Shown: in pieces, positions 3,319 to 62,179 of the stretch
Layout: every line of letters starts with the position of its first letter
Numbering within the stretch: position 1 is the stretch's first letter
Notes under the pieces: generated by a model
Databases searched by the model: none
What the model was told of the DNA's origin: nothing
The model's input: only the letters and a program-made list of their open reading frames with translations
From: a bacterium
Lineage (GTDB): Bacteria; Patescibacteriota; Minisyncoccia; 1-14-0-10-42-19
Length of the DNA stretch: 64,000 bases
Direction: 5' to 3'
NCBI GenBank assembly: GCA_030690215.1
Contig: JAUYHD010000016.1
Location: 17,681-81,680 of the forward strand
Made by a program: the position numbers and the translations under genes

Positions 3319-3720
3319 GCAAAATCGGACCGTCTTCCTTGCCGCGTCTACTAGCGAATTTCGACGATTTGAACAACGGACCATTGTTTCTTTAACCATA
3401 TATAGCATCCGTCAGACGTAGATGCGGCTTCCGATTTAGCCAAACGGGGCAAACCCCGTAGTGAAAAATAGCATGGTTGTTCTTACGCCTCATCGCTAAC
3501 AATACAATGAACCGCAAACTGTGGCGTTGGTGTAAAACAGAGAAACCCACACATCGAACAACAAAGGCGTTATGCTATTTTCTACTAACGGGGCAAACCC
3601 AGCTCCACTTTTGTGATAAGAACGCATAGATAAAGCGTGATTTTTCCATAGTATGAGTTTTTGGGAGCGCAGGCTCAATACAAAAGTGGGGCTGGGCAAA
3701 CCCCATTGGGCACTACTGTC
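3300..3720. repeat. Composite MITE-like repeat region (CCCCGTTAGGC / GCCAAACGGGG termini). Homologous in reverse orientation to 46200-46545 and related to 41270-41330.
   Basis: The reverse complement of 3305-3420 aligns with 46255-46370 (CGTCTGACGGAT...GCTAGTAGACGCG...GATTTTGCCTAACGGGG). Confidence 0.6.
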
Positions 3721-6920: not shown

Positions 6921-6935
6921 TCCCGACAGCAAAGG

Positions 6936-7006
6936 TGGACCCGCGGAGAATCGAACTCCGGCCTACCGGATGCAAACCGGTCGTTTTACCACTGAACTAC
7001 GGGCCC
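6936..7006 (-). tRNA. tRNA-Ala (anticodon TGC)
   Basis: Reverse complement GGGCCCGTAGTTCAGTGGTAAAACGACCGGTTTGCATCCGGTAGGCCGGAGTTCGATTCTCCGCGGGTCCA; G3:U70 Ala identity pair; cloverleaf folds; no encoded CCA. Confidence 0.9.
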
Positions 7007-11109: not shown

Positions 11110-11279
11110 GTAAACCCCCCGTTTTTGAATGTTTTTTTTAATGTAAACCTGGGCTCATTCTACTATAAAATTAATAAAATGTCAATACATACATTGACAA
11201 CTATAAATAAATATAGTATAGTTACTTAAATCAATTTAAACGTAGTACAATAAAAACATACCATTAAGGAGGTATCAGT

Positions 11280-19388: not shown

Positions 19389-19403
19389 CCGCACTAAAAA
19401 TTT

Positions 19404-19475
19404 GGGCACATAGTTCAGTGGTAGAACGCTGTCCTGATAAGACAGAGGTGCTAGGTTCGATTCCTAGTGTGCCCA
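19404..19475 (+). tRNA. tRNA-Ile (anticodon GAT)
   Basis: GGGCACATAGTTCAGTGGTAGAACGCTGTCCTGATAAGACAGAGGTGCTAGGTTCGATTCCTAGTGTGCCCA; cloverleaf folds; no encoded CCA. Confidence 0.9.
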
Positions 19476-19489
19476 TAAATTTTCCCAAA

Positions 19490-27852: not shown

Positions 27853-30800
27853 ATGAAAAAAAATCTGTTCGGGGTTCTGACACTTGGAATCCTGGTTATT
27901 GTATCAAGTTTCGTTTCTACATCCGATGTTGCCGTAGCAGCACCTGTCCCTGGCAGCATAACCGTGTTTGCTTCTGATACTGGTGTTAACGACGCAACCG
28001 TGGGTACGCGAATTTGGGGCAATCCTCAAAATGTTTCAAGCAGTGATGACGTGTCCGCCCAGGCAAACTTCATAGAGGACCAGGATTTGATTACGCGGTA
28101 TCTCCGCGTTGCTCCTCAATCACTATCTGCAATCCCCGCAGGAAGCACTATTACCGGCATACAAGTTAGCGTTGAAAAGAAAAGGGGGGCAGCGGTTACT
28201 GTTAGGGATTATTCTATACGCCTTTATAAATCGGCGGGTTTTATAGGAAACAACAAAGCCGATACTGGCACTAACTGGCCCGCGTCAGACCAAACCTTCA
28301 CGTATGGGGGGTCGGGAGACTTATGGGGCGCCACATGGACAAGAGACGAAGTAGTAAATAATTTGCAGGTTGGGATTTCCGCCCAAAATACTTTTAACGG
28401 AGGGGCAGGGGCCGTCATTGATTCTATTCAATTCACTATTTGGTATGAATACACTCCGCCCGCCCCAACCGTAATTGAAGCAGACAACACCGTGTTTGCT
28501 GCAACTACCGGCGTCAACGACACAACCGTGGGTACAAAAATTTGGGGTACTACCAATAATATCGCGGCAAGCGATGATGCGTACTCACAAGTAAACCTTT
28601 TGACAGGCGGAGATATATCAAGGTATCTCCGTGTTGCTCCGCAGTCACTTTCTTCAATTCCTGAAGGGAGCACAATTAAAGGCATACAAGTCAGCATTGA
28701 GAAAAGTAGAGGTACGCAATTTGTTAAAGATTATTCTATACGCCTCTACAAATCCGGAACGGGCTACATAGGCAGCGACAAAGCTAACACAAGCGTTAAC
28801 TGGCCTGCTTTAGATGAAATAGTTACCCATGGAGGTAATGGTGATTTGTGGGGGACCACATGGACCAGAGATGAAGTGGTTAATAATTTGGAAGTGGGAA
28901 TTTCCGCCCAAAACCAAACTACCACTTCAGCAGGAGCAAAGATCGATTCCATACAGTTTACTATTTGGTATGAATACACTCCGCCCGCCCCAACCGTTGA
29001 CCTAAAAGCAAACAGCGCCAACGGACCAATATCAATTGACTACAACACAGGTGCAACACTTTCGTGGGCTTCGACAAACGCAACATCGTGTGCCGCATCA
29101 AACGCATGGTCCGGAACAAAAGGCACATCAGGGTCAGAATCAACCGGAAATCTTACAGCATCAAAAACATACACGATAACGTGTACAGGGACAGGGGGAA
29201 GCGCAAATGATAGCGTTACAATAAATGTCCTCGCACCACCGCCCCCACCTCCTCCGCCACCGCCTCCTCCGCCTCCTCCGGCAACAACTGTATGCCAAGG
29301 CTCTGTAACTCTCTATCAACACATCAACTATATCGGTTATTCAGCGGGTTTTGATGTTGGCACCTACACCCTTGCACAACTTCAAGCATGCGGAGTTATT
29401 AACAACGACATATCTTCAATGAAGGTACCGAATGGCTACCAGGCAACGTTATATGATGGAGACAACTATTCAGGAATAAGTCTTACGCGAACTACTGACG
29501 ACAGCACATTGGTAGATGACGGGTTTAATGATTTAACTACATCGCTACGCGTAACAACCATTTCAACAACACCCACTCCTCCACCTCCGCCACCTCCATC
29601 GCCGGAACCTTCTCCAACTCCCCCACCGCCACCTCCTCCAACAAGCAACCTTGCTTTCCAAATTAATGACAAAATCCAAGTAACATCAGGACCTCTCAAT
29701 GTAAGAAGTTGCGCAAGCTTATCTTGCAACTCTCTTGGTATACAACCAACAGGTTCTTTGGGGTCAATTATCGGAGGCCCAACATTTGCAGATGGATTTT
29801 TCTGGTGGAATATCAATTACGATAACGCTCCGGATGGTTGGTCGGTTGAAAATTTCTTAACTCTCGTAACCTCAACTCCTCTACCACCTCCTCCACCGCC
29901 ACCGCCTCCAGCACCAGAACCTTCTCCAGCTCCACCGCCGCCACCTCCTCCAACAAGCAACCTTGCTTTCCAAATTAATGACCGTATTCAAGTAAACACA
30001 GGGAGCTCGGAATTTAATCTTAATGTCCGATCAACAGCAAATGGCACGATCGTTGGACAGCAATCAAACGGTGCGTTGGGAACTATTATCGGTGGGCCTC
30101 AAAGTGCTGGCAGCCACACATGGTGGAATGTTAATTTTGATGTAGCGCCTGATGGATGGGTTGCTGGAGATTTTCTTGTCACCAGTTCATCTCCTTCTCC
30201 AACACCTCCACCTCCGCCACCTCCTCCAGCACCGGAACCTTCTCCAACTCCCCCACCGCCACCTCCTCCAACAACAACCCTACTTTCTATTCCCGGAACC
30301 ATACAAGCAGAAAGCTATAAAGTAGGGGGCGAGGGTATTGGGTATCATGACACTACCCCAACAAACGATGGGGGCGCCGGGACTCGCAATGATGGAGTGG
30401 ATATAAAAGATGTCCCGGGTGAAGGTTTGACTATCGGATTTACAAATATCGGCGAATGGCTTGCATACGATGTAAGTGTCTCCCAAGGAGGGACATACTC
30501 TATTGATCTCCGCATCGCAAACGGAGAAACAACAAATCGTTCTCTCCACCTGGAAATAGACGGAACAAATAAAACCGGTTCGGTTACCGTGCCATCTACC
30601 GGATCATGGAACACACAAACAACTATTACAGTGCCCAATGTTTCCCTTACCCAAGGAACTCATGTATTGCGCGTTGTGTTTGACAATACCCCGCTTGATC
30701 TCAATTGGATGTTGTTTAATTTTGTTTCTTCCGGAAGTCCGTCTGCGCCTTCTGTGTCCACAAAATTCCAGATAAACGACCGCGTGCAAACAACAGACAA

Positions 30801-32835
30801 TCTTAATGTCCGCTCAATACCTTCAACTGTAACTGGGGTGGTGCTCGGCACGCACCAAACGGGATCACTCGGGACAATTATTGGCGGACCCGTTTTTGCA
30901 AACAATATTTGGTGGTGGCAAGTAAATTACGATAACAATCCTGACGGCTGGTCTGCTGAAAACTTTTTAACAAAATCAACAACGTCAGCACCACCGCCGC
31001 CGCCTCCTCCGACAACCATAGACATCAAAGCAAATAGCTCCGATGGACCAATATCCATTGCGTATAATTCAAGCGCAACACTTAGTTGGACTTCCTCAAA
31101 CACAACATCTTGCACCGCATCAAACGCATGGTCCGGAACAAAAAGCACATCGGGATCAGAATCAACCGGAAATCTTACGGAATCAAAAACATACACAATG
31201 ACCTGCACAGGAACTGGAGGAAGCGCAAATGACAGTGTCACGGTTAATGTAAATCCTCTGTCGACTCCTCCGCCTCCTCCCCCACCACCTCCATCTTCTA
31301 GCAATGAAGCACTCATATATGTAGATAATCAAAATTCCTCTGCTTCAGATTCTAACCCAGGAACAGTAACAAGCCCGCTAAGAACTATCGGCAAAGCCGC
31401 TCAACTAGCAAACTCAAAAAATAAGAGCGGAATTCCGGTACGAATTATTGTAAAAGCAGGCACATATCGAGAGTCGGTTGCATTCAATGATGAAACCGGC
31501 ATCACAACATCACCTATTACTATTGAGGGATCCCCCATCGGACAAGCAATTATTTCAGGATCAGATGTATGGACAGGATGGACTTCTACATCAGGTCTCT
31601 GGGTTCATGACTGGCCTTATGACTGGGGCGCGGTTTCCTGGCTTGGCGTACCCTCCGGAGAACTCGCAAGACGCCGCGAAATGGTATTCGTAAACGGTGA
31701 ACACTACATGCAAGCTCTTTCAACGGGAGAACTGACGGACAAAACCTTTTATGTAGATGAGGTCAACAATAAAATCTATGTAAAATCTTCCACCAATCTG
31801 AACACCTCAAAAGTAGAAGTCGGCACCCGGAAAGGAATATTCTATGCAAAGAATAGGCAAAACTTTACAATACGGGGCATGATATTCCAACACGATACCA
31901 CTGCCGGTGATTTATCTGGTGTTAATTTCGTCCTCATGAAAAACCTTGTCATAGAAGACAGTAAATTTTTGTGGAATAACTGGGGTGGGATGCAAATTAC
32001 AAGAGGTGAGGGAATTACCGTACGCAGACTCGTTGGTAATTATAATGGCGGGAAAGGAACAGAAATGGTGTTTAGCAAAAATGCCTTATGGGAAGATATA
32101 GAAAGTTCATATAACAACTGGCGCGGAGATTCGGGAGGGTTCAACCAATGGAGTGTCGCAGGTTCAAAGCACTTAAGGAACCGAGATGTTACATATCGTA
32201 ATTTTGTCGTCGCCAACAACAAAGCGAGAGGATTTTGGCTCGATTATGATAACTCTGGCATTGTTTTTGACGGTCTTATTTCTATTAATAATTATGAGAG
32301 CGGTATCTCTCTTGAAGCCAACCAGGGTCCGATACTTGTAAAAAATAGCGCAATCTGTGGGAACGGCGACTATGACGGAGTAAGAACCTCAACTTCATGG
32401 GGCGGACTTATTTCTGCAAACTCCATGAACATTACTATCCAGGATAGTGTTTTCTATCGGAACGTTGTTACTAATATTCGGACTCACGGAGCAAACATCC
32501 GACCGATCAACGATTTCGTAACAGGAGGGGTGCATGACGGAATATCGAAAAATTGGACATGGACGGGCATCGTTGATGTGGGCCAAGGCACAAATGAGTT
32601 GCTTGTGTATAGAGTAGATGACGCTACTGAATTTTTGGATACCCTTACGGTAAACAACAATATTTATTGGAACCCTACTGACCCAAATACATTCAATGCT
32701 AATGGGAGAACAGATTTTGCCGGATGGAAAACTAAAACCGGTCAAGAGCAAAACTCGGTATTTGCCGATCCAAATACTCTTTCTTTGACCAGCCAACAAA
32801 GAGCACTGCTAGACAGATGCATTGCTAGCTACTAA
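27853..32835 (+). CDS. Giant secreted multidomain surface protein (1660 aa). Signal peptide; 2x about 175-aa repeat; 2x Ig-like; poly-Pro linkers; beta/gamma-crystallin; 3x SH3b-like; CBM6-like; C-terminal right-handed beta-helix.
   Basis: Duplicated NxNGPISIxYNxxATLSWxSxNxTSCxASNAWSGTK Ig-like units (29000-29235, 31017-31255); Greek-key CQGSVTLYQHINYIGY...; CBM6-like LSIPGTIQAESYKVGGEGIGYHD...GEWLAYDV...LNWMLF; beta-helix NFTIRGMIFQHD... Confidence 0.7.
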   Translation: MKKNLFGVLTLGILVIVSSFVSTSDVAVAAPVPGSITVFASDTGVNDATVGTRIWGNPQNVSSSDDVSAQANFIEDQDLITRYLRVAPQSLSAIPAGSTITGIQVSVEKKRGAAVTVRDYSIRLYKSAGFIGNNKADTGTNWPASDQTFTYGGSGDLWGATWTRDEVVNNLQVGISAQNTFNGGAGAVIDSIQFTIWYEYTPPAPTVIEADNTVFAATTGVNDTTVGTKIWGTTNNIAASDDAYSQVNLLTGGDISRYLRVAPQSLSSIPEGSTIKGIQVSIEKSRGTQFVKDYSIRLYKSGTGYIGSDKANTSVNWPALDEIVTHGGNGDLWGTTWTRDEVVNNLEVGISAQNQTTTSAGAKIDSIQFTIWYEYTPPAPTVDLKANSANGPISIDYNTGATLSWASTNATSCAASNAWSGTKGTSGSESTGNLTASKTYTITCTGTGGSANDSVTINVLAPPPPPPPPPPPPPPPATTVCQGSVTLYQHINYIGYSAGFDVGTYTLAQLQACGVINNDISSMKVPNGYQATLYDGDNYSGISLTRTTDDSTLVDDGFNDLTTSLRVTTISTTPTPPPPPPPSPEPSPTPPPPPPPTSNLAFQINDKIQVTSGPLNVRSCASLSCNSLGIQPTGSLGSIIGGPTFADGFFWWNINYDNAPDGWSVENFLTLVTSTPLPPPPPPPPPAPEPSPAPPPPPPPTSNLAFQINDRIQVNTGSSEFNLNVRSTANGTIVGQQSNGALGTIIGGPQSAGSHTWWNVNFDVAPDGWVAGDFLVTSSSPSPTPPPPPPPPAPEPSPTPPPPPPPTTTLLSIPGTIQAESYKVGGEGIGYHDTTPTNDGGAGTRNDGVDIKDVPGEGLTIGFTNIGEWLAYDVSVSQGGTYSIDLRIANGETTNRSLHLEIDGTNKTGSVTVPSTGSWNTQTTITVPNVSLTQGTHVLRVVFDNTPLDLNWMLFNFVSSGSPSAPSVSTKFQINDRVQTTDNLNVRSIPSTVTGVVLGTHQTGSLGTIIGGPVFANNIWWWQVNYDNNPDGWSAENFLTKSTTSAPPPPPPPTTIDIKANSSDGPISIAYNSSATLSWTSSNTTSCTASNAWSGTKSTSGSESTGNLTESKTYTMTCTGTGGSANDSVTVNVNPLSTPPPPPPPPPSSSNEALIYVDNQNSSASDSNPGTVTSPLRTIGKAAQLANSKNKSGIPVRIIVKAGTYRESVAFNDETGITTSPITIEGSPIGQAIISGSDVWTGWTSTSGLWVHDWPYDWGAVSWLGVPSGELARRREMVFVNGEHYMQALSTGELTDKTFYVDEVNNKIYVKSSTNLNTSKVEVGTRKGIFYAKNRQNFTIRGMIFQHDTTAGDLSGVNFVLMKNLVIEDSKFLWNNWGGMQITRGEGITVRRLVGNYNGGKGTEMVFSKNALWEDIESSYNNWRGDSGGFNQWSVAGSKHLRNRDVTYRNFVVANNKARGFWLDYDNSGIVFDGLISINNYESGISLEANQGPILVKNSAICGNGDYDGVRTSTSWGGLISANSMNITIQDSVFYRNVVTNIRTHGANIRPINDFVTGGVHDGISKNWTWTGIVDVGQGTNELLVYRVDDATEFLDTLTVNNNIYWNPTDPNTFNANGRTDFAGWKTKTGQEQNSVFADPNTLSLTSQQRALLDRCIASY

Positions 32836-33548: not shown

Positions 33549-33598
33549 TTGACCCCGTTAGATGAGCGAGCTTTGAGAAGCTCTATCTAATGGGGCTT
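33549..33598. repeat. Palindromic REP-like element followed by a promoter-like TTGACC-17-TATACT
   Basis: CCCCGTTAGATGAGCGAGCTTTGAGAAGCTCTATCTAATGGGG then GCTTGACCTCAATAATAAAAGGATTATACT. Confidence 0.6.
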
Positions 33599-33960
33599 GA
33601 CCTCAATAATAAAAGGATTATACTGATACTTGGTATGAAAGACCCAATAATTGTTTAGCTTAATACGTTTTGTTTTTAACAAGTAAACCCACTGCTGTCT
33701 TTGGAGACAGTTTTTGTTTTCCAAAATAGCAGCGGGAGTACTTGGACCAGCAATTTTACAAAAGAGATTAATAAAGTAAGAATCTTTTAAAAACAAAAGA
33801 AAAAGAAATATGCGTTTTCTTTTGTTCCGTTCACATATTTCGCTTGCGCTGCGCGCAATCGCGAAATAAAGTGCCCCGTCGAATGACGGGGCGCGAGAGT
33901 GCGAGAAACTTTGAACGTCCGGTCATCCGACCGGACTCAAAAAGACTCGCTCACTCTCGT

Positions 33961-36192
33961 CTTTTTGAGAGTTTGATCCTAGCTCAGGATGAACGCTGGC
34001 GGCGTGGATAAGGCATGCAAGTCGTACGGTCGTGCCTCTCTATCGCTCAGCACTCCCTAAGCTCAAAGTGTAAAACGAAAAGTTCAAAACTAATGTGAAA
34101 TAATTTCAACAAAGTTGAAATTATTATTCCTCAGTTTTACGTTTTTATTTTTGAGTTTTTAGTTTGAGTGCCGAACGGCAGTGAGGCACGACAGTGGCAG
34201 ACGGGGTAGTAACACGTAGGTACATACCACTGAGACAAGAATAACCCAGAGAAATCTGGGATAATACTTGATAGTCTAGTGATCGATTTTCCCTCACAAG
34301 ATGTTTTAATTTTTAATTCTCAATTATCAATTTTCAATAAAAATTTGGAAATTGAAACTTTCTCGCCTCGCCGTAGCTTTAGCGAAGCGGAAACATTGTC
34401 CGCCAGAGGCGGATCCTCCTCCGGAGGAAAAATTCAAAACAGTCCTTGCGGGTAAAAATCGGTTACTAGTAAAGGTTCGTAAGAACCGCTCGGTGAATGG
34501 CCTGCGGGCTATCAGCTTGTTGGTGAGGTAACGGCTCACCAAGGCTATGACGGCTAGGGGGTGTGAGAGCATGGCCCCCACCAATGGAACTGAGACACGG
34601 TCCATACATCTACGGATGGCTGCAGTCGAGAATATTGGGCAATGGGCGAAAGCCTGACCCAGCGACGCCGCGTGCAGGATGAAGGCCTTCGGGCTGTAAA
34701 CTGCTTTTATGGGGGAGGAATCCCCTCCTTGAGGTTGAGTGTGGTACAATCACGCTATGTATTATGTATATATCCTGAAATTAAATAATGAAAAATTATA
34801 CATCGGATACACTGTGGATTTAAAAAGGCGTATTGTTGAACACGAAACAGGAATGAGTATGCATACTAAAAAATTTTTACCTTGCATGCTTGTTTATTAT
34901 GAAGCATACAAATCACGAAAAGATGCGATGAAGCGTGAGAAAAATCTAAAAAAATTCAAAAGTTCATACAGACAATTAAAAATACGTATTGCTTCAAGTA
35001 TATTCGACACCAAGGAGGGGATGACGTTACCCCATGAATAAGGGCTTGCTAACCTCGTGCCAGCAGCCGCGGTAATACGAGGGGCCCAAGCGTTATCCGG
35101 AATCACTGGGCGTAAAGGGTTCGTAGGGGGTTGTATTAGTCCTATGTTAAAGCCTTCGGCTTAACCGAAGAAATGCATAGGAAACGGTATAACTGGAGGG
35201 TGTGAGAGGCTGATGGAACTCACGGTGTAGGGGTGAAATCCGTTGATATCGTGGGGAACACCAAATGCGAAGGCAATCAGCTGGCGCATTCCTGACCCTG
35301 AAGAACGAAAGCGTGGGGATCGAAAAGGATTAGATACCCTTGTAGTCCACGCCCTAAACGTTGATGACTAGCTATTGGAAGTATCGACCCTTCCAGTGGC
35401 GTAGCTAACGCGTTAAGTCATCCGCCTGGGAATTACGATCGCAAGATTAAAACTCAAAGGAATAGACGGGGACTCGCACAAGCGGTGGAGCATGTGGTTC
35501 AATTCGATGATAAGCGAAAAACCTTACCAGGGCTAGAAATTCTAGTGAAGTCGACCCGAAAGGGACGATGTCTCACAAGGACACTAGGACAGGTGCTGCA
35601 TGGTTGTCGTCAGTTCGTGGTTTGAACTGTTCCCTTAAGTGGGTCAACGAACGCAACCCCCGTTGCCTGTTATACATGTCAGGCAAGACTGCCCCTCACT
35701 TTGCGCACAAGCGCAAAGTGAGTTTACTAGTTACGCCTTGCTCTAGTTTGCTAGTTTAAATTTTACAACTAGAAAACTAAAGTGAGCAGAGCGAACGTAA
35801 CTAGAAAACTCACTTTGTTCGTTTGCGAACAAAGTGAGGGGAGGAAGGTGGGGATGACGCCAAATCAGCATGGCCCTCGACGTCCTGGGCTACACACATG
35901 CTACAATGGCACGTACAAAGGGCCGCAAAAGAGCAATCTGGAGCAAATCCCATCAAAACGTGCCCTAGTTCGGATTGAGGTCTGCAACTTGACCTCATGA
36001 AGCTGGAATCGCTAGTAATCGCAGATCAGCACGCTGCGGTGAATACGTTCTCGAGTCTTGTACTCACCGCCCGTCAAGTCAGGGAAGTCGGGAGTACCCG
36101 AAGTGCCAGGTATCTGGCCCGAAGGTAAGCTCGATAACAAGGACTAAGTCGTAACAAGGCACGGCTAGCGGAAGCTGGTCGTGGATCATTAT
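33961..36192 (+). rRNA. 16S rRNA gene, about 2.23 kb, with four insertions. (a) 34063-34170 hairpin element; (b) about 34275-34480 V2 expansion; (c) about 34720-35020 GIY-YIG ORF; (d) about 35694-35848 palindromic insertion. The 3' end is ...GGATCATTATCT and lacks CCUCC.
   Basis: Conserved blocks AGAGTTTGATCCTAGCTCAG, GTGCCAGCAGCCGCGGTAATAC, GGATTAGATACCCTTGTAGTCC, GCATGTGGTTCAATTCGATG, TACACACCGCCCGTCA, AAGTCGTAACAAGG read in order. Confidence 0.9.
34757..35041 (+). CDS. GIY-YIG nuclease-family ORF embedded in the 16S rRNA V3 insertion (possible intron-encoded homing endonuclease)
   Basis: MYYVYILKLNNEKLYIGYTVDLKRRIVEHETG is a canonical GIY-YIG motif; the ORF 3' end runs into the conserved TGACGTTACC rRNA sequence. 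Confidence 0.7.
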   Translation: MYYVYILKLNNEKLYIGYTVDLKRRIVEHETGMSMHTKKFLPCMLVYYEAYKSRKDAMKREKNLKKFKSSYRQLKIRIASSIFDTKEGMTLPHE

Positions 36193-36338
36193 CTAAACTA
36201 TTTCCGATATTCATTTGATTTTTATCAAAAGAAGAAGCGGAACAGTTAGGCGATACTCCCACTGGGAGTAATAGGTGTTAGTCGCGGAGCCTTTAAATCG
36301 CGACTTGAACGGAGCAAAAGAAAACGCACATACACAAA

Positions 36339-36376
36339 GACCCCGAATCGCGTTTGACGCGACGGGGTTTTTGTTT
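36339..36376 (+). terminator. Rho-independent terminator downstream of 16S (GACCCCGAATCGCGTTTGACGCGACGGGGTTTTTG)
   Basis: The same CGCGTTTGACGCGACGG hairpin recurs at 3742-3770 and 21905-21945. Confidence 0.55.
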
Positions 36377-36378
36377 GC

Positions 36379-36507
36379 TTGACAAATAAAATAATCTTTG
36401 CTATCATGCGAGCACCTCACGTTTGAGGCCTATTTGATCGGATGACCTGTAGACCCAGGTCACACGGGGCGAGTTGCTGTAAAAAGCAAGCGCCCCTATT
36501 TTTTTTA
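36379..36507 (+). ncRNA. Candidate about 90-nt small RNA: sigma70-like promoter (TTGACA 36379-36384, 17-bp spacer, TATCAT 36402-36407) then internal hairpin then GGGGCGAGTTGCTGTAAAAAGCAAGCGCCCC + T8 terminator
   Basis: Promoter and terminator read directly; no family assignment possible. Confidence 0.3.
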
Positions 36508-36512
36508 CTTTT

Positions 36513-36590
36513 CATTGACCCAGTTAGATGAGCAAGCTTTGCGAAGCTCTATCTAACGGGGTTGACAATACTCCCCCATTCTGTAGAATA
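36513..36590 (+). promoter_or_regulatory. REP-like palindrome whose 3' arm supplies a -35 (CTAACGGGGTTGACA) for a TTGACA-17-TAGAAT promoter; about 200-nt structured leader upstream of the MoxR-vWA gene
   Basis: Sequence read directly; leader contains hairpin TGCCTTTTTCTATGCATAAAAGGCA. Confidence 0.45.
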
Positions 36591-36798
36591 AACTCCGAAC
36601 TGAATAATTCCCTATCAGAAAGGAAAGGGCAAGTTAGGTTACCAACCTGACCCATTCTATCCCTAGGTAGACCGGAAAAGAGCAGCGTTCTTTTCCCTAC
36701 TTTGAGGACAAAGAATATGTCAGAACCTACCTTGCCTTTTTCTATGCATAAAAGGCAAAGAACATTAAAAATAAAAATAGAACCACACGGAGGATATC

Positions 36799-39363
36799 AT
36801 GGAAGTAACCGCAATAGGAAAGTTTCTCTATGAAGCTCTTGATAAATTTATTGAAGGGCAGGAAGGATTAAAAAAATTCCTCCCCATAAGCTTCCTCGCA
36901 AAAGAAAGCATGCTTATTATCGGTCCCACGGGAACCGCTAAAACCCTCTCGAGCGAATTGATAGCTCACGCAACAGACTTACACCTTCATCATGTACAGG
37001 GCACAAATGAGATGACCATAAATCAGATCATTGGGCCTGCGGTACTCATCCGTGAAAAAACCGATCTCGGCCACGGAAAGGAAGAAGAAAAAATATTTGA
37101 GGGATTTGAGCCAGGCTGTTTTCTTCGGTGTGATACCGGATTTTTTGACGAAATCACGCGAGCGCCTGACGAGATAATGAATGTTCTTCTCCCTATCCTG
37201 AATGAAGGAAGATATGAATATTTCAATCCATCAACCAAAAAGGAAGAATGGACACATTCTTCTATGCGCCAGCTTATTGCCGCGGCAAACCCGAAAAGCA
37301 GGTCTTCAAAACTCTTGGAAGAACAGGTTGTAGACCGGTTCTCCTTGGGAGTTATCTGCAGAAACCTCATATTCAAAAAGAGGTTTAAAAATTTGCGTGA
37401 AGCAATGAGACGGTCGCGTACATGGCCCGAAAATCTTCTTGAAGCCCCGATAAGCAAGGAAATGAAAGGAAGGGTAAGCAAAAGCGATCTGGACAAAGCG
37501 TATGAATGCGTCGGCGGGAGCGATCCTCGGATAAAAATACCTCTTATCGTAACATGGGCTCTTGTGTCTCTCCTCGATATCATCATAGAGACGCGTAATC
37601 TCCAGGAAGACGACGCGGTGTTCACCGACCGAGCCGCTATCGCAAAACTTCATAAGCTTTTGCGGGCGCACGCGCTTTTTGAAGGACGCCTGAAAGTTTC
37701 ATGGGATGACTTCCGCGTATTTTATGGCTACATCACTCACCGAGTGGAAAAAATCCACAGGAAACCGATAAATCATCTGGTTGAGCTGTTTATAGACACG
37801 CTGAAACATCATGTCTATACAAAAGAAATAGCGCAAACTCTTGATGAGCTGGACAAATTAAAAGAAACTATTGACCACAGCTTAGCTGAAGAGAAACAGC
37901 GGGAAGAAAATCTAACGCACGCTCAAGCGCTTGAAACAAAAGCGGAGGCATTTTTCGAAGAGATAAAATCTTTTTTTATAACGGCAAAGGACGCGCTCGC
38001 ACAGATCAACACCTATGAAGAATTGCGCGACGCAACATCCGAAAAGCCCTTTGAAGGAAGTTTTAAGGATGTCCCTTCGCCTGATAAAAAAGAGAGCGCT
38101 CCCCCCGCAGACCAACTCAAAAATCAGGAGCCAAAGAAAGAAGACCAAAACCCTGCGCCGAAAGACAAAGAACCGCAGGGGCACCGAGAACAGGGAGCAA
38201 AAGACAAAAAAATGACGTTTAATGATTTTTTTCTTGATCAGCAAGAACCAACCATTGAGCTCTCCACCTCTCAAACGCATGAAGCGGGCCCTGAAACCGA
38301 TATAGATCTGCGCGGTATAAAAAACTTTGAGACTGCCGAAAGTGTGAATATCTTCCTTGTAGAGATAGGACGCCTTAAAGAAAGTTTTCGGGTGCAGAGA
38401 AAGAAAGAGCACCCTCGCCGGGGCGAAATATCCCACAGAAAACCAATAAAAAATCTTGAGGATATAAAAAAAGCGGAACCTTCGCGGATTCCCGAATATA
38501 TTGATTCGGGCGCGCCAAAACCACTGATAAAAATACGAACGGTCCCCGACATATGCCTATTTACCGCGCGGGATGTTTCGTATTCTATGGCAGGTGAAGT
38601 GGCGGGCAAAGGAACGCTTGCGACAAAAGGGAATCTGGCACGCTGGGCATCCCAGATTGATATTGCAATCTGCCATGAAGGACAGCAAAGAGATTTCTCC
38701 TATGCTCATATGGACTTCAGCGAGCGGCAGTATTTCTCAACAGAACAGAGGATTGCTCTTGCCGAACAGATGAGACTCATCTCCCCTGATATTTCAAAAA
38801 TAGAAAAGCTCATACACTCTACCGATTGCAAAGGAGCTACCGACATTGAATTCATGATAGAGACGGCACTATCCCATATTGAGGAACGCACCAAACGGTA
38901 TGGAGAAATGCTTACCTTTCTTGTCCCTATAACTGACGGGATAGAAACTATCCGCCACGGAAAACTTGATGCACTGCTTGCGGCATGCGTCAAAAAATCT
39001 ATCGTTATTACGCCGGTATTCATTTTTGACCCATTGGGTATAAAGGGTCAGGAATATATCGTCTATAAAAACGGACGGATGACAGATCTGAAAGCTCCGA
39101 GCACCATCAGCCATATGGCTGAGGAAACGGAAGGTATGATCTTTTGGGGAATACAGGACAGCGAGCACGACAGAGTCGCATTCGCGACAAAGGATACTGC
39201 GCTTAGAATAATACGGGCGCTCGCGCATACCAGCAAGATAGAAGCTCCCCGATTTTCCTCCACGGGAAAGAACTATCGGTCTTTCGGAAACAATATGAGT
39301 ACTGACGGAGAAAAACAAAAAACTCCGTTCAATACTGAAAATCTTTATAAGACAGGTACATAA
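36799..39363 (+). CDS. Fused MoxR-like AAA+ ATPase (N-terminus) and von Willebrand factor A domain with MIDAS (C-terminus), 854 aa
   Basis: Walker A GPTGTAKT; Walker B and sensor FFDEITRAPDEIMNVLLPILNEGRY; C-terminal ARDVSYSMAG (DxSxS MIDAS) and ITDGIE; long charged linker. Confidence 0.65.
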   Translation: MEVTAIGKFLYEALDKFIEGQEGLKKFLPISFLAKESMLIIGPTGTAKTLSSELIAHATDLHLHHVQGTNEMTINQIIGPAVLIREKTDLGHGKEEEKIFEGFEPGCFLRCDTGFFDEITRAPDEIMNVLLPILNEGRYEYFNPSTKKEEWTHSSMRQLIAAANPKSRSSKLLEEQVVDRFSLGVICRNLIFKKRFKNLREAMRRSRTWPENLLEAPISKEMKGRVSKSDLDKAYECVGGSDPRIKIPLIVTWALVSLLDIIIETRNLQEDDAVFTDRAAIAKLHKLLRAHALFEGRLKVSWDDFRVFYGYITHRVEKIHRKPINHLVELFIDTLKHHVYTKEIAQTLDELDKLKETIDHSLAEEKQREENLTHAQALETKAEAFFEEIKSFFITAKDALAQINTYEELRDATSEKPFEGSFKDVPSPDKKESAPPADQLKNQEPKKEDQNPAPKDKEPQGHREQGAKDKKMTFNDFFLDQQEPTIELSTSQTHEAGPETDIDLRGIKNFETAESVNIFLVEIGRLKESFRVQRKKEHPRRGEISHRKPIKNLEDIKKAEPSRIPEYIDSGAPKPLIKIRTVPDICLFTARDVSYSMAGEVAGKGTLATKGNLARWASQIDIAICHEGQQRDFSYAHMDFSERQYFSTEQRIALAEQMRLISPDISKIEKLIHSTDCKGATDIEFMIETALSHIEERTKRYGEMLTFLVPITDGIETIRHGKLDALLAACVKKSIVITPVFIFDPLGIKGQEYIVYKNGRMTDLKAPSTISHMAEETEGMIFWGIQDSEHDRVAFATKDTALRIIRALAHTSKIEAPRFSSTGKNYRSFGNNMSTDGEKQKTPFNTENLYKTGT

Positions 39364-39900: not shown

Positions 39901-40245
39901 TTATTTTTGTTCAATCCGTGTCCCGTTTTTATCATAATGCTGGATAAAAACATCTTCACTTATAAGATAATACATAATTGCCTCTTGTTTATAATGCTGT
40001 GCTGTAATATCTGCGATCATTTCAATTTGCGAACATGTGCACATAATACGCACCGGAATCATTTCTTCGGTAAACAGCTTGTTATCAGGACTCACCCACT
40101 GCCCTTTCGCGGTCCGGAATATTGTCAAACCAGAGGATATGCCTCGTACCATCTCATCCCATTTATTATGGTACGAAATCTCAATCTTGCTTCCATCCGA
40201 AAAAATTTTGGGTACAAGAATCTCCCACAGTGCGATCTTTTCCAT
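39901..40245 (-). CDS. Hypothetical protein
   Basis: 114-aa ORF. Confidence 0.35.
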   Translation of the reverse strand: MEKIALWEILVPKIFSDGSKIEISYHNKWDEMVRGISSGLTIFRTAKGQWVSPDNKLFTEEMIPVRIMCTCSQIEMIADITAQHYKQEAIMYYLISEDVFIQHYDKNGTRIEQK

Positions 40246-40252
40246 TTTTTAT

Positions 40253-40747
40253 CTACGCCTTTAATCCATCCAAAGGAAGAATAACGGGATCGGGATTCCC
40301 GCATAAAAAAATCTTTCCGTCCTGCCTTTCTCGGACCTGAAGCATATTGAGATAATTCATAATCCCCTGGATAAAAGTCTCCAAAATTATTTCCTTTGTT
40401 TTGGTGAGCTCTTTTTTCTTGGCAAAATCTTCAAAATCATCCATTAAATCAGATACAAGTACGGAAAGGAATGCCTGAATTTGATTTGAATTTTGTTCAT
40501 AGCGGAAAACACTATTAAAAACCTCAAGCGTCCTTGAAAGGACGTCTCGAATACTGACACTTTTTTCGGGGATATTACAAATTTTTGCGATTATAGTACG
40601 AAGATCGCTAACCGTATCTTCCCTTTTATAATGTCCCTTCGCATAGAGTATAAAGTGCCTTATAAATTCATCTTTAAATTCTACCGTTTCCTCAATTGCC
40701 GGACTAATAAGCTCCATTGTACTTCCTCCTTTTTTATCAAAAATCAA
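40253..40747 (-). CDS. Hypothetical protein
   Basis: 164-aa ORF; helical composition. Confidence 0.35.
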   Translation of the reverse strand: MIFDKKGGSTMELISPAIEETVEFKDEFIRHFILYAKGHYKREDTVSDLRTIIAKICNIPEKSVSIRDVLSRTLEVFNSVFRYEQNSNQIQAFLSVLVSDLMDDFEDFAKKKELTKTKEIILETFIQGIMNYLNMLQVRERQDGKIFLCGNPDPVILPLDGLKA

Positions 40748-40845
40748 TTTTGCAAATTATACTTTAAAAAAATATGAATGTCAATAGATTGCAAAAAGCA
40801 GAAAAATAAAAAGAAGGAGGGTGATTTCCTTCTTTGGGCCAAACT

Positions 40846-41223
40846 TTATAGAGTATGTATGAATTGATTCGCTAAATTTTTAAAAAAACTTTCGTATTTA
40901 GGCAAAACTCCTCTTTCGGTAAGTTCTTTTGAAATCGAGGCTGGAATCTGTTTATGTACTAAGTACATATCGCCCCAACTTTCAAAAAATTGTCCCATTT
41001 CAAAAAAAGTTAAAGAATCCCGAATAGCTTCGCTATAAAAATCCCCGTTTGATCTCTTTTTAATCCCGTAGCGAATGCGATCGTCAGTCATGGCAAAAAA
41101 ATTATATAAAGCCTGTTCGTCAAAACTATAACCGCCCAAATTCATCAGAAGTCCCATCAAAATTTCTGAAATAGATAATTCTTCAACTAAAATTTTTTGC
41201 ATACATCTATCTCCCTCTGACAA
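40846..41223 (-). CDS. Hypothetical protein
   Basis: 125-aa ORF. Confidence 0.35.
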   Translation of the reverse strand: MSEGDRCMQKILVEELSISEILMGLLMNLGGYSFDEQALYNFFAMTDDRIRYGIKKRSNGDFYSEAIRDSLTFFEMGQFFESWGDMYLVHKQIPASISKELTERGVLPKYESFFKNLANQFIHTL

Positions 41224-43959: not shown

Positions 43960-44095
43960 ACATTAAAAACCAAATTCCAAATAACAAATATCAAACAATA
44001 TCCAATTTTCAATAGGCAAGCCCCAAACCGTGTTTTAAATTTGTAATTTTGAATTTGTTTGAGATTTGGATTTTGGTATTTGTCATTTTATCAAA
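43960..44095. repeat. AT-rich simple-sequence region of CAAAT/ATTCCAAA-type units (family shared with 4845-4930, the trmD insert, the 16S V2 insert and 62200-62260)
   Basis: Read directly. Confidence 0.55.
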
Positions 44096-44783
44096 TCCAC
44101 CCTTTTACCTCCAGCGCTTTCCGTGCCGCCTCTTCCTGCGCTATCTGCTTTGACGGGCCTTCGCCCTCCGCGACTTTCTCCTCATCCAAAAAAATACCGA
44201 TAACAAAATGCTTATCGTGGTCAGGCCCCCACTCTTTGATAACGCTGTATGTCGGCGTAACACCGTGTCTATCCTGCGCTTCTTCCTGAAACATGCTCTT
44301 TGGGTCTTTGTATAATTTTTTCTCAATAATTTCGTCTAACTGCGGCATGAGTACGCGCTCCAAAAAATCCTTTACTTCACCATATCCCCGGTCCAGATAC
44401 AAAGCGCCCGAAAGCGCCTCAAACGTATTTGCAAGAATATATTGGCGCGCGCGTCCCATATCCTTTGACTCTCCGCGTGAAAGGAGAAGGTGGTCGCCTA
44501 CATGCAGAATGCCTGCGACTTCCGCGAGCATCTTGGTATTCACAAGAGCAGCCCGAAAGCTCGTGAGTTCCCCTTCGGGCTTTTCAGGAAAACGCAAAAA
44601 CAAAGCTTCGGTAATAACAAGCTCAATGACCGCATCGCCCAAAAATTCAAGGCGTTCATTATGCGGGTATTTCCAATCGGTGTTCTCGTTTAAATACGAA
44701 CGATGCGTAAGGGCTTCATATAACAGACTCTTGTTTATAAAGCTGACGCCGAGACTCTGCTCAAGACCGGATAAATCTTTCAT
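44091..44783 (-). CDS. rnc: Ribonuclease III
   Basis: ERLEFLGDAV signature; C-terminal dsRBD. Confidence 0.9.
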   Translation of the reverse strand: MKDLSGLEQSLGVSFINKSLLYEALTHRSYLNENTDWKYPHNERLEFLGDAVIELVITEALFLRFPEKPEGELTSFRAALVNTKMLAEVAGILHVGDHLLLSRGESKDMGRARQYILANTFEALSGALYLDRGYGEVKDFLERVLMPQLDEIIEKKLYKDPKSMFQEEAQDRHGVTPTYSVIKEWGPDHDKHFVIGIFLDEEKVAEGEGPSKQIAQEEAARKALEVKGWI

Positions 44784-48575: not shown

Positions 48576-48638
48576 TGTTTTTATTATACCACCCATGCTA
48601 TTCTCAAGAATGAAATTGAAAATACAGAAGGAGGAAAA

Positions 48639-56268: not shown

Positions 56269-56328
56269 GATAAACCTCCTTTATTACATTATTTTTAACG
56301 TACTTATTCGATTTCTAAAAAAATTATT

Positions 56329-60694: not shown

Positions 60695-62179
60695 TTATGA
60701 TAACATCTTTTTCAATAATTCCTGAAGCATCGCGGGGTTGGCTGATCCTTTTGTCGCCCTCATCGTCTGCCCCACCAAAAACTTAAACGCATTTTCTTTG
60801 CCTTTTTTAATATCGGCGACAGCGTCGGGGTTTTCTTCAATAATTTTCTTAATTATTTTTTCTAGCTCGCCCGTGTCGCTCACCTGGCGCAATCCTTTTT
60901 CATCAACAATTTGCGATGGATCACCTCCTTTTTCAACCATCTCTAACAACACGTCTTTTGCAACACGGGAAGATACTTCGTTCGCGTGTATCATCTTTAT
61001 TAGTTCTGCAAAATTTTCGGGGGTTACCAAAAGCTCTCCCCACGGGATTTCTTTTTCTTTTACAATCCCCCGCAGGTCAGAGGTTAAATAATTCAGCGCG
61101 GTTTTCTTTATTTTTTCCTTATTTCCGCCCGTCACCCATTCAGATAATTCAGAAAGGCCTGCCTCTAAAAACGCGAGGAACGCCGTATCGTCAAGCGCCA
61201 TGATAAGCGCGTCATCCGAAAGCCCGTATTCGGCAGTAAGGCGCGCGCGCCTCTGGTATGGAAGCTCCGGCAATTCCGCTTTGAGTATTTCTATATCAAA
61301 TTCTTTGTGCGGATACACGGGAGGCAGGTCGGGTTCGGGAAAATACCGATAATCATGCGCTTCTTCTTTTGAGCGCTGGGAAAATGTTTTTTGTTTTTCT
61401 TCATCCCATCCGCGCGTCTCTTGTGTTACTTTTTCTCCTTTCTCCAACAATTCCCCTTGGCGCTTAATTTCGTAGGTGATTGCGCGTTCCACCGCACGAA
61501 ATGAATTTAAATTTTTTACCTCCACCTTCGTTCCAAGTTTTATTTTTGAAGTTTGATCATTAGCATTTGTTTGAAAATTGTCTGCCGGAAGCAGACTGAT
61601 ATTCGCTTCAATCCGGAGTTGCCCTTTTTCCATATCGGCATCAGACGCACCCAAATACCGCAACAACCGTTGGAACTCTTCGGAAAATTCGCGGACTTCA
61701 GAAGCGCTCGTAAAGTCGGGCTCCGTTACCATTTCCATCAACGGAACGCCTGCGCGATTAAAATCAACGAGAGTCGCCTGTTTTTCGTGCACAAGTTTGC
61801 CCGCGTCTTCTTCCAGGTGCACTCGCGTAATGCGGATTTCTTTTTGGACTTTCGAAAGATAAAGTTTGCCGTGCTCTACGAACGGATGCTTATACTGCGA
61901 AATTTGGTATCCTTTCGGCAAATCGGGATAAAAATAATTTTTACGATCAAACTGGGAATATTCGGATATCGTGCCATCAAGCGCAAGACCGATTCGCAAC
62001 ACATGGCGGATTGCTTCTTTATTTGCGACAGGCAATATACCCGGATGACCCATACACACAGGACAGACATTGATATTAGGATGCGCCTCATTCGGATCAT
62101 TTAAAGAATCGCAAAACATCTTTGTTTTGGTCTTGAGTTCCGCATGTATTTCTAGTCCAATTGTGGGTTGATATCCCAT
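60695..62179 (-). CDS. gatB: Asp-tRNA(Asn)/Glu-tRNA(Gln) amidotransferase subunit B
   Basis: MGYQPTIGLEIHAEL...CPVCMGHPG zinc site; C-terminal YqeY-like domain. Confidence 0.9.
   Translation of the reverse strand: MGYQPTIGLEIHAELKTKTKMFCDSLNDPNEAHPNINVCPVCMGHPGILPVANKEAIRHVLRIGLALDGTISEYSQFDRKNYFYPDLPKGYQISQYKHPFVEHGKLYLSKVQKEIRITRVHLEEDAGKLVHEKQATLVDFNRAGVPLMEMVTEPDFTSASEVREFSEEFQRLLRYLGASDADMEKGQLRIEANISLLPADNFQTNANDQTSKIKLGTKVEVKNLNSFRAVERAITYEIKRQGELLEKGEKVTQETRGWDEEKQKTFSQRSKEEAHDYRYFPEPDLPPVYPHKEFDIEILKAELPELPYQRRARLTAEYGLSDDALIMALDDTAFLAFLEAGLSELSEWVTGGNKEKIKKTALNYLTSDLRGIVKEKEIPWGELLVTPENFAELIKMIHANEVSSRVAKDVLLEMVEKGGDPSQIVDEKGLRQVSDTGELEKIIKKIIEENPDAVADIKKGKENAFKFLVGQTMRATKGSANPAMLQELLKKMLS

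Follow-up and report, generated by a model that had tools for sequence, protein, structure and literature searches.

Loss of the anti-Shine-Dalgarno (anti-SD) sequence CCUCC from the 3′ end of 16S ribosomal RNA (rRNA) is rare in bacteria at large, yet within a large part of Parcubacteria most members seem to have undergone it. Only 128 of 20,648 prokaryotic taxids are without CCUCCU (Amin et al. 2018, PMC6107228), and organisms lacking it were concluded to lack Shine-Dalgarno (SD) motifs as well (Amin et al. 2018, PMC6107228; Lim et al. 2012). Among Parcubacteria, the anti-SD motif was detected in only 48% (Tsurumaki et al. 2022, RNA 28:1041, PMC9297842); its absence largely parallels uL1 loss and SD helices are inferred not to form. 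Anti-SD loss in this clade is already known in outline, and our literature search found no paper addressing the feature beyond Tsurumaki et al. 2022. Here we analyse a 16S gene whose 3′ end is without CCUCC, located in a 64-kb stretch of bacterial DNA (contig JAUYHD010000016.1, positions 17,681 to 81,680; 'the window' in what follows). It is likely, in our judgement, to be a functional 16S gene of Parcubacteria from which the anti-SD has been lost naturally, with the loss fixed in the lineage.

The locus resembles the anti-SD-less Parcubacteria of Tsurumaki et al. (2022, PMC9297842), which belong to the same clade, have no CCUCCU (CCTCCT) at the 16S end and possess insertion-bearing rRNA genes. 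The passages of that paper on this feature give the detection rate and the correlation with uL1 and cover no tail sequences, trailer anatomy or mRNA SD content; SD helices are thought there not to form, whereas SD motifs persist in the lineage of the window. A similar likeness is seen with the organisms described by Lim et al. (2012) and Amin et al. (2018) (some Flavobacteriales, Mycoplasma, Carsonella and Blattabacterium), which retain helix 45 (h45) and GAUCA, have other bases in place of CCUCC and have evolved no new complementary SD. There, SD motifs are not enriched before open reading frames (ORFs), whereas AAGGAG heads the ranking of upstream motifs in the window lineage and is conserved across its taxa. 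Most genes of Bacteroidetes are likewise translated without SD pairing while a minority carry SD-like sequences; these bacteria reportedly keep CCUCC in their rRNA, hidden by proteins, whereas at the present locus the anti-SD itself is gone.

The 16S gene and its 3′ end

The gene and the parts of it that bear on its 3′ end are as follows.

33961–36196 (+), 16S rRNA gene, 2236 nt (Rfam RF00177)
34041–34182, 34287–34459 and 34729–35016 (+), large insertions in the 16S gene (RF00177 alignment)
about 35700–35833 (+), expanded variable block of the 16S gene
36160–36183 (+), h45, CACGGCUAGC-GGAA-GCUGGUCGUG, 10 pairs of which two are G-U, at model positions of about 1497–1520
36183–36188 (+), conserved GGAUCA linker (cmscan alignment)
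36189–36200 (+), variant 3′ tail UUAUCUAAACUA, where bacteria usually have CCUCCUUU

The match to the bacterial small-subunit rRNA model covers the full length (model positions 1–1533) and scores 1340.9 bits against a gathering score of 50; the gene measures 2236 nt because of its large insertions and the variable block. The third insertion encodes a GIY-YIG ORF (34757–35041; Pfam, E = 8.5e-14) and is bracketed by a 10-bp stem, CCCCUCCUUG/CAAGGAGGGG. The 3′ minor domain is intact, as judged from the cmscan alignment and pattern matching: h44, AAGUCGUAACAAGG, h45 with its GGAA loop and GGAUCA are all present. Directly 3′ of GGAUCA, no CCUCC is present in the RF00177 alignment; positions 36189–36193 read UUAUC in its place, so that four of the five anti-SD positions differ. 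At this end, GGAUcACCUCCUUu of the model is aligned to GGAUCAUUAUCUAA of the window with a posterior probability of '*', and the model's ACCUCCUUu is aligned to AUUAUCUAA. Elsewhere in the gene CCUCC occurs only within or bordering the insertions (34415, 34418 and 34724), and after the tail the next CCTCC on the + strand is found at 36879, inside the downstream coding gene. An earlier note on this DNA, made from the letters alone, had reported a terminus devoid of CCUCC behind a well-formed h45, and no CCTCC in the following 300 nt; both statements are borne out.

Conservation of the tail in related genomes

Adjoining the 16S gene is a gene for a bpMoxR-type ATPase (36799–39363), a homologue of which in Candidatus Niyogibacteria bacterium CG10 (CG10 below) is 77% identical. 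GatB is 78% identical to that of CG10 and 76% identical to that of a second metagenome-assembled genome named Ca. Niyogibacteria, and the NCBI lineage of CG10 runs through the Patescibacteria group to the Parcubacteria group. These identities support placing the host with Candidatus Niyogibacteria, within the Parcubacteria and the Candidate Phyla Radiation (CPR).

The 16S genes of the window and CG10 are syntenic, with aligned blocks that are 92–97% identical, the CG10 gene being 1558 nt long (1392 bits) and without the three large insertions. No CCUCC was found in the whole CG10 16S plus 200 nt, and the 32 nt after GGAUCA are identical between the two organisms. Five assemblies of the CG10 species (one NCBI, two JGI and two ENA) have the same gene order. 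The tail was read in three (one NCBI, one JGI and one ENA), which give identical AAGGCACGGCUAGCGGAAGCUGGUCGUGGAUCAUUAUCU across the 16S 3′ end; the remaining two (JGI and ENA), whose tails were not read, give a 16S match of equal score and length. A Logan contig from the same organism as the window (SRR13727534), reached via the ATPase gene, starts inside h45 and is identical in h45 and tail. Two further relatives, reached via the ATPase and S16 (Logan SRR22387992, here L127, and SRR22387798, here L249), share this h45 and tail. Letter for letter, the tail is the same in the window, L121, L122, L124, L125 and L249; L127 has one A fewer. In total, the 39 nt of h45 and tail are shared by four taxa (the organism of the window, CG10, L127 and L249) in at least six assemblies, and therefore reflect neither an assembly error nor chance.

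How far these taxa have diverged can be gauged from a small gene shared by the window and L127, in which 54 of the 111 third codon positions differ, as compared with 12 first and 10 second positions; neutral sites are therefore near saturation, whereas the tail has stayed the same. In three Logan runs, unitigs cross h45 and the tail into the flanks, and no 16S with the same h45 and another tail was found at assembly-relevant depth in the three Logan samples. Within this lineage, the tail is fixed.

These data bear on the idea that the gene is a decaying, non-functional copy, or that its tail is an assembly chimaera, as its unusual tail and many insertions might lead one to think. Its score of 1340.9 bits compares with 1392 for the insertion-free relative, no core motif is missing (decoding centre, h44 and h45 are intact), and the same tail recurs in at least six assemblies of four taxa; moreover, the gene is flanked by promoter, processing stem and terminator, the processing elements are conserved in relatives and the trailer hairpin covaries (see below). 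We regard either origin as hardly conceivable, and the non-functional copy and the misassembly that the earlier note had raised can both be set aside.

The transcription unit and its trailer

Elements on either side of the gene make up the rest of the unit.

33597–33624 (+), putative sigma-70-like promoter, TTGACC-16-TATACT (consensus scan, 10/12 matches)
33811–33833 (+), leader–trailer processing stem, 5′ strand UGCGUUUUCUUUUGUUCCGUUCA (RNAduplex)
36193–36249 (+), first trailer hairpin, inner stem UUCCG/CGGAA, starting 10 nt after h45
36255–36269 (+), second trailer hairpin, ACUCCC-ACU-GGGAGU, pairing kept through changes in CG10 and L127
36281–36304 (+), third trailer hairpin, GUCGCG...CGCGAC, invariant in relatives
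36306–36328 (+), leader–trailer processing stem, 3′ strand UGAACGGAGCAAAAGAAAACGCA, conserved in CG10, L127 and L249
36341–36373 (+), intrinsic terminator ending the 16S transcription unit (terminator scan and direct sequence reading)

The leader and trailer strands form 23 contiguous pairs (about −40 kcal/mol, RNAduplex). This stem is of the usual type cut by RNase III, the gene for which is present in the window at 44091–44783. The first trailer hairpin has minimum free energy z-scores of −3.3 in the window, −2.9 in CG10 and −1.7 in L127, values that come from single-sequence folds and not from a multiple alignment. Its inner stem covaries: UUCCG/CGGAA in the window, UUCCGAU/AUCGGAA in CG10, UUCCCGG/CCGGGA in L249 and UCCUCU/GGAGGA in L127. 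After the intact h45 and GGAUCA, the RNA would read UUAUCUAAACUA and continue into the structured trailer, the RNase III-type stem and the terminator, and the mature 16S end would be expected at or near 36196–36200, with UUAUCUAA.

This anatomy leaves little room for a 3′-terminal intron or insertion that parts h45 from a true CCUCC tail to be joined by splicing, another explanation proposed in the earlier note. Such an element might be thought plausible because the gene has other large insertions, one with a GIY-YIG endonuclease, and because group II intron domains occur near the 16S 3′ end in some relatives. By 36373, some 180 nt past h45, hairpins, processing stem and terminator have brought the unit to its end, so that there is no second exon; the first downstream CCTCC is the coding one at 36879, and neither an intron nor any other RNA family was matched in 36190–36810 at E ≤ 10 (Rfam). 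In addition, CG10 is free of the three large insertions; its tail is the same, and CCUCC is missing there too. The sole GGATCACCTCCTTT in the window (60919) sits inside gatB and is unconserved in relatives. Splicing of this kind is, in our estimation, practically excluded. As to the group II domains, they comprise D1–D4 and were seen in two metagenomic relatives with the same h45 (L200, 464–578; L193, 243–327), in one case just downstream of the 16S 3′ end and in the other about 300 nt upstream of h45.

The GGATCACCTCCTTT at 60919–60932 (+), a perfect copy of the canonical tail, was also considered as a detached 16S tail and rejected as a chance occurrence: it lies antisense in gatB, where it encodes EKGGDPS, relatives' GatB proteins have EGGGDPS, EENGDPS or EKNGDPS at this place, and no convincing promoter was recognized.

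Anti-SD loss across the clade

Metagenome contigs were scanned with the pattern GUCGUAACAAGG-CAC-N7-GGAAG-N6-GUG-GAUCA, the tail being left free, which yielded at least 120 16S ends. Among the 120 ends listed, the canonical CCUCCUUU tail was found in 23 (19%), one-step variants in 5 (UCUCC twice, CCUUC, CCUCA and CUUCC) and assorted A/U-rich tails in 92, for example AUUAAACU (20 ends), UUUUUUUA (13) and CUACAUUU (7). In aligned stretches of at least 200 nt, none of those listed exceeds 85% identity to the CG10 16S, and they therefore belong to deep lineages. A displaced CCUC or CUCC within 40 nt was present in 7 of the 88 distinct non-canonical tails, as against 5.0 ± 2.1 for shuffled sequences, which is the chance level.

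The sample accords with the 48% detection rate of Tsurumaki et al. (2022). The 16S gene of the window is therefore an instance of anti-SD decay that extends across the Parcubacteria, a possibility that was not among the options of the earlier note. It is also a well-anchored example, since its whole transcription unit is available (promoter, processing stem, structured trailer and terminator) and its tail is fixed across taxa. A scan of 596 Gb of genome contigs with the pattern GGAAG-N8-GGATCATTATC, which proved too short, gave no 16S end among the 120 matches listed; some of these matches presumably derive from a Bacteroidota rRNA segment, which they resemble, and we take the others to be chance.

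Putative leaderless starts

A −10-like hexamer of the form TANNNT was found 5–10 nt upstream of 15 of the 52 first starts in the window (about 29%), as compared with 25 of 406 internal controls (P = 4.5e-6). The same holds for metagenome loci with canonical tails (17/73 versus 31/573, P = 3.5e-6) and for those with non-canonical tails (95/353 versus 127/1752, P = 1e-22). Genes with this layout in the window, its relatives or both include those for S16, TrmD, RNase HII, DnaE, GatB and MiaA, and housekeeping genes are without an SD. Many housekeeping genes have TATCAT, TATACT, TATAGT or TACCAT 5–10 nt before ATG and no sign of a 5′ UTR, e.g. upstream of 39439, 59306 and 62179 (all minus strand), 56810 and 12148. 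The upstream sequences point to leaderless mRNAs being abundant across the clade.

In this respect the lineage shares features with leaderless-dominated translation systems (Actinobacteria, Deinococcus, haloarchaea and mitochondria), namely a −10-like hexamer 5–10 nt before about a quarter of the starts and housekeeping genes devoid of an SD. The leaderless-dominated bacteria retain the anti-SD, whereas the window lineage, whose leaderless status is deduced from sequence, is without it.

Canonical SD motifs and their possible partners

The earlier note had pointed to a tension between the anti-SD-less 16S and strong GGAGG-type ribosome-binding sites before 48639, 11280 and 711. All three sites were located, with spacings of 4, 7 and 7 nt, and the enrichment of SD motifs has statistical support. 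This part of its interpretation stands, while its intron and its non-functional copy do not. Examples of such sites are the following.

36789–36793 (+), GGAGG, 5 nt before ATG 36799 (bpMoxR-type ATPase gene, 36799–39363)
11266–11272 (+), AAGGAGG, 7 nt before ATG 11280
48629–48634, AGGAGG, 4 nt before GTG 48639
719–725 (−), AAGGAGG, 7 nt before ATG 711
40725–40730 (−), AGGAGG, 7 nt before ATG 40717 of a small hypothetical gene (40253–40717)
56275–56281 (−), AAGGAGG, 6 nt before TTG 56268 of a 126-amino acid hypothetical gene

Several observations weigh against a plain loss of the anti-SD in this lineage. With each long non-overlapping ORF in the window assigned its first start codon, an SD-blind rule that gives crude calls, AGGAG or GGAGG precedes 8 of 52 first starts by 4–18 nt, as against 8/406 internal controls (P = 1e-4, odds ratio 9). 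In an annotation-free count before ORF-opening starts, AGGAG and AAGGA rank first and second of the 1024 pentamers (P = 4e-5 and 7e-5). Stretches of at least 6 nt perfectly complementary to the canonical tail precede 26 of 94 genes in five Niyogibacteria taxa, as opposed to 8.1 ± 4.8 with shuffled tails; starts in the fetched loci are those of gene callers, which may favour SD-preceded starts. Before the ATPase gene, GGAGGA is kept in five taxa while the flanks vary, and SD motifs are conserved between taxa that have diverged at about 49% of synonymous sites. Such conservation suggests that some CCUCC-bearing partner exists. Finally, the 16S copy number was judged from the 64-kb window, which has one 16S, and from the contigs of relatives, and the 16S 3′ end is known here from the gene sequence and not from the mature RNA.

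The motifs have further properties. With any start among the first 30 codons admitted, AGGAG or GGAGG precedes 13 of the 52 window genes. The spacing is canonical (4–8 nt), and the consensus AAAGGAG[GA] matches CUCCUUU. Predicted pairing amounts to −8 to −18 kcal/mol with the canonical tail and, for window genes, to −1 to −5 with the actual 13-nt tail; complementarity to the actual variant tail is seen in 9 of 94 genes versus 7.9 ± 3.4 for shuffled tails. The SD of the 40253–40717 family is kept in the L248 orthologue, and CG10 has a similar motif ahead of a candidate counterpart. Of ten SD-led genes, eight are without a Pfam match and two encode NDK and a methyltransferase. The SD frequency of the window (8/52) exceeds that of other anti-SD-less loci (16/353, P = 0.006) and is not lower than that of relatives with canonical tails (5/73); the first-start test was used for these comparisons, since the annotation-free pentamer test was too noisy on the pooled metagenome loci, probably owing to unmasked rRNA and tRNA. 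Selection maintains canonical AAGGAGG motifs before about 15–25% of genes, mostly small hypothetical ORFs together with the bpMoxR ATPase, NDK and methyltransferase genes. A new SD complementary to the variant tail was also sought and rejected (0/53 genes at dG ≤ −6).

Side observations concern the small ORFs. A cluster of them (47–161 amino acids, without Pfam match) adjoins rpsP (S16) at 39901–41202 (−) in the window, at 2889–5099 in L248 and at 3486–4706 in L249. Some of the N-termini are hydrophobic; nearly all of these ORFs lie behind strong AAGGAGG-type sites, and the adjacent housekeeping genes have none. At least one family bears a signature of purifying selection (12/10/54 differences by codon position). 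Directly before the ATG of the small conserved gene 39901–40245, four taxa have the same UAGAUAAAAA (40246–40255, minus strand), whereas the gene itself has diverged at 49% of its third codon positions. UAGAUAA complements UUAUCUA of the variant 16S tail exactly, and a related UAGAU precedes gene 40846–41202 and its L248 orthologue; UAGAU-type motifs are not enriched before genes genome-wide, and coincidence is possible.

Three readings of this mismatch remain: a second, divergent 16S gene, a retained 3′ extension and an SD function that is independent of the tail. The first, the remaining explanation proposed in the earlier note, would be an Alteromonas-like arrangement in which a second 16S with a canonical CCUCC tail serves the SD-led genes. 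It would account for the enrichment and conservation of canonical SD motifs at 4–8 nt, which pair well only with the canonical tail, and it has a precedent in Alteromonas, where two 16S types have different anti-SDs (Amin et al. 2018, PMC6107228). Against it, contigs of 64–150 kb and the unitigs of three Logan runs cross h45 and the tail into the flanks with no branch, which excludes a near-identical second copy. L136, which was found in CG10's metagenome and combines the same h45 with a CCUUC tail, belongs to a different organism, as its GC content of 34% and its 16S identity of 82% indicate. CPR genomes generally have one rRNA copy, which likewise speaks against a second gene. We consider such a gene improbable; the 16S of the window is probably the only copy in the genome.

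According to the second reading, the anti-SD has moved: the mature 16S would carry a longer 3′ extension, in which a pyrimidine stretch 17–21 nt after h45 (UUUCC at 36202–36206 in the window, UCCUC in L127) pairs with the SD. With tails extended in this way, predicted pairing to the observed SDs amounts to about −5 to −11 kcal/mol for the window and −4.5 to −12 kcal/mol for L127, and the identity of window and CG10 over 32 nt past GGAUCA would fit a functional extension. This stretch is the 5′ strand of the hairpin that covaries in four taxa, and the covariation implies that it is selected to pair in cis. Besides, its complement GGAAA is not enriched before starts (6/219 versus a background of 4.2%), the AA of AAGGAGG fits CCUCCUU and not UUUCCGA, and CCUC or CUCC within 40 nt of non-canonical tails is at chance, as described above. 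A relocated anti-SD therefore seems very unlikely to us.

The third reading assumes that a selected SD class (the small lineage-specific ORFs and the MoxR-type ATPase) exists beside a single anti-SD-less 16S, GGAGG being recognized by some factor other than the 16S tail. We put this forward tentatively, as a rather unlikely possibility, and the same caution extends to the candidates for the reader of GGAGG: a specialized second small-subunit rRNA, a trans-acting RNA, a retained 3′ extension, a protein, or else an SD function unrelated to docking.

Gene linkage and neighbouring RNAs

No 23S or 5S gene is present in the window, that is, within 34 kb upstream or 28 kb downstream of the 16S, and tRNA-Ile(GAU) (19403–19476) and tRNA-Ala(UGC) (6934–7006, minus strand), the usual place of which is the rRNA spacer, are each solitary; the 16S is therefore an unlinked gene. 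Directly upstream, at 27853–32835, is a gene for a 1660-amino acid protein with CBM35, beta-helix and SH3-like domains. It holds repeated CCACCTCCTCC segments (29246–30260), to which a sizeable fraction of the window's CCTCC strings can be traced.

Immediately behind the 16S terminator, a fresh promoter (11/12 matches, with an extended −10 TG) starts at 36379. The resulting unit spans 36379–36510, is about 90 nt long, ends in a strong terminator and has no Rfam match; CG10 has two promoter–terminator units of unrelated sequence in its place. Between a further 11/12 promoter (36562–36589) and the bpMoxR ATPase gene lies a structured RNA of about 190 nt (36598–36790), which is conserved in four taxa and closed by a 15-bp helix, AAAGGGCAAGUUAGG with CCUAxCUUGCCyUUU; L127 has an apical insert of about 110 nt. 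No Rfam match was obtained for it at E ≤ 10, and it may represent a new cis-regulatory leader, or else a small RNA.

Implications

With a natural, lineage-fixed loss of the anti-SD as the likely explanation, ribosomes carrying this 16S would be unable to form a classical SD helix, and initiation would take place mainly on mRNAs that are leaderless or AU-rich and SD-less. Abundant leaderless mRNAs and a low dependence on SD may have relaxed selection on the anti-SD and so permitted its repeated decay. The SD motifs that have no partner in the 16S of the window either act without rRNA pairing or are read by an RNA encoded outside the window. The new point is this mismatch, namely that SD motifs are selected before a subset of genes even though the known 16S cannot pair with them. 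If the mismatch holds, the lineage would offer a natural system for finding out what an SD does without an rRNA partner; if a second rRNA gene exists, it would mean specialized ribosomes in a minimal genome.

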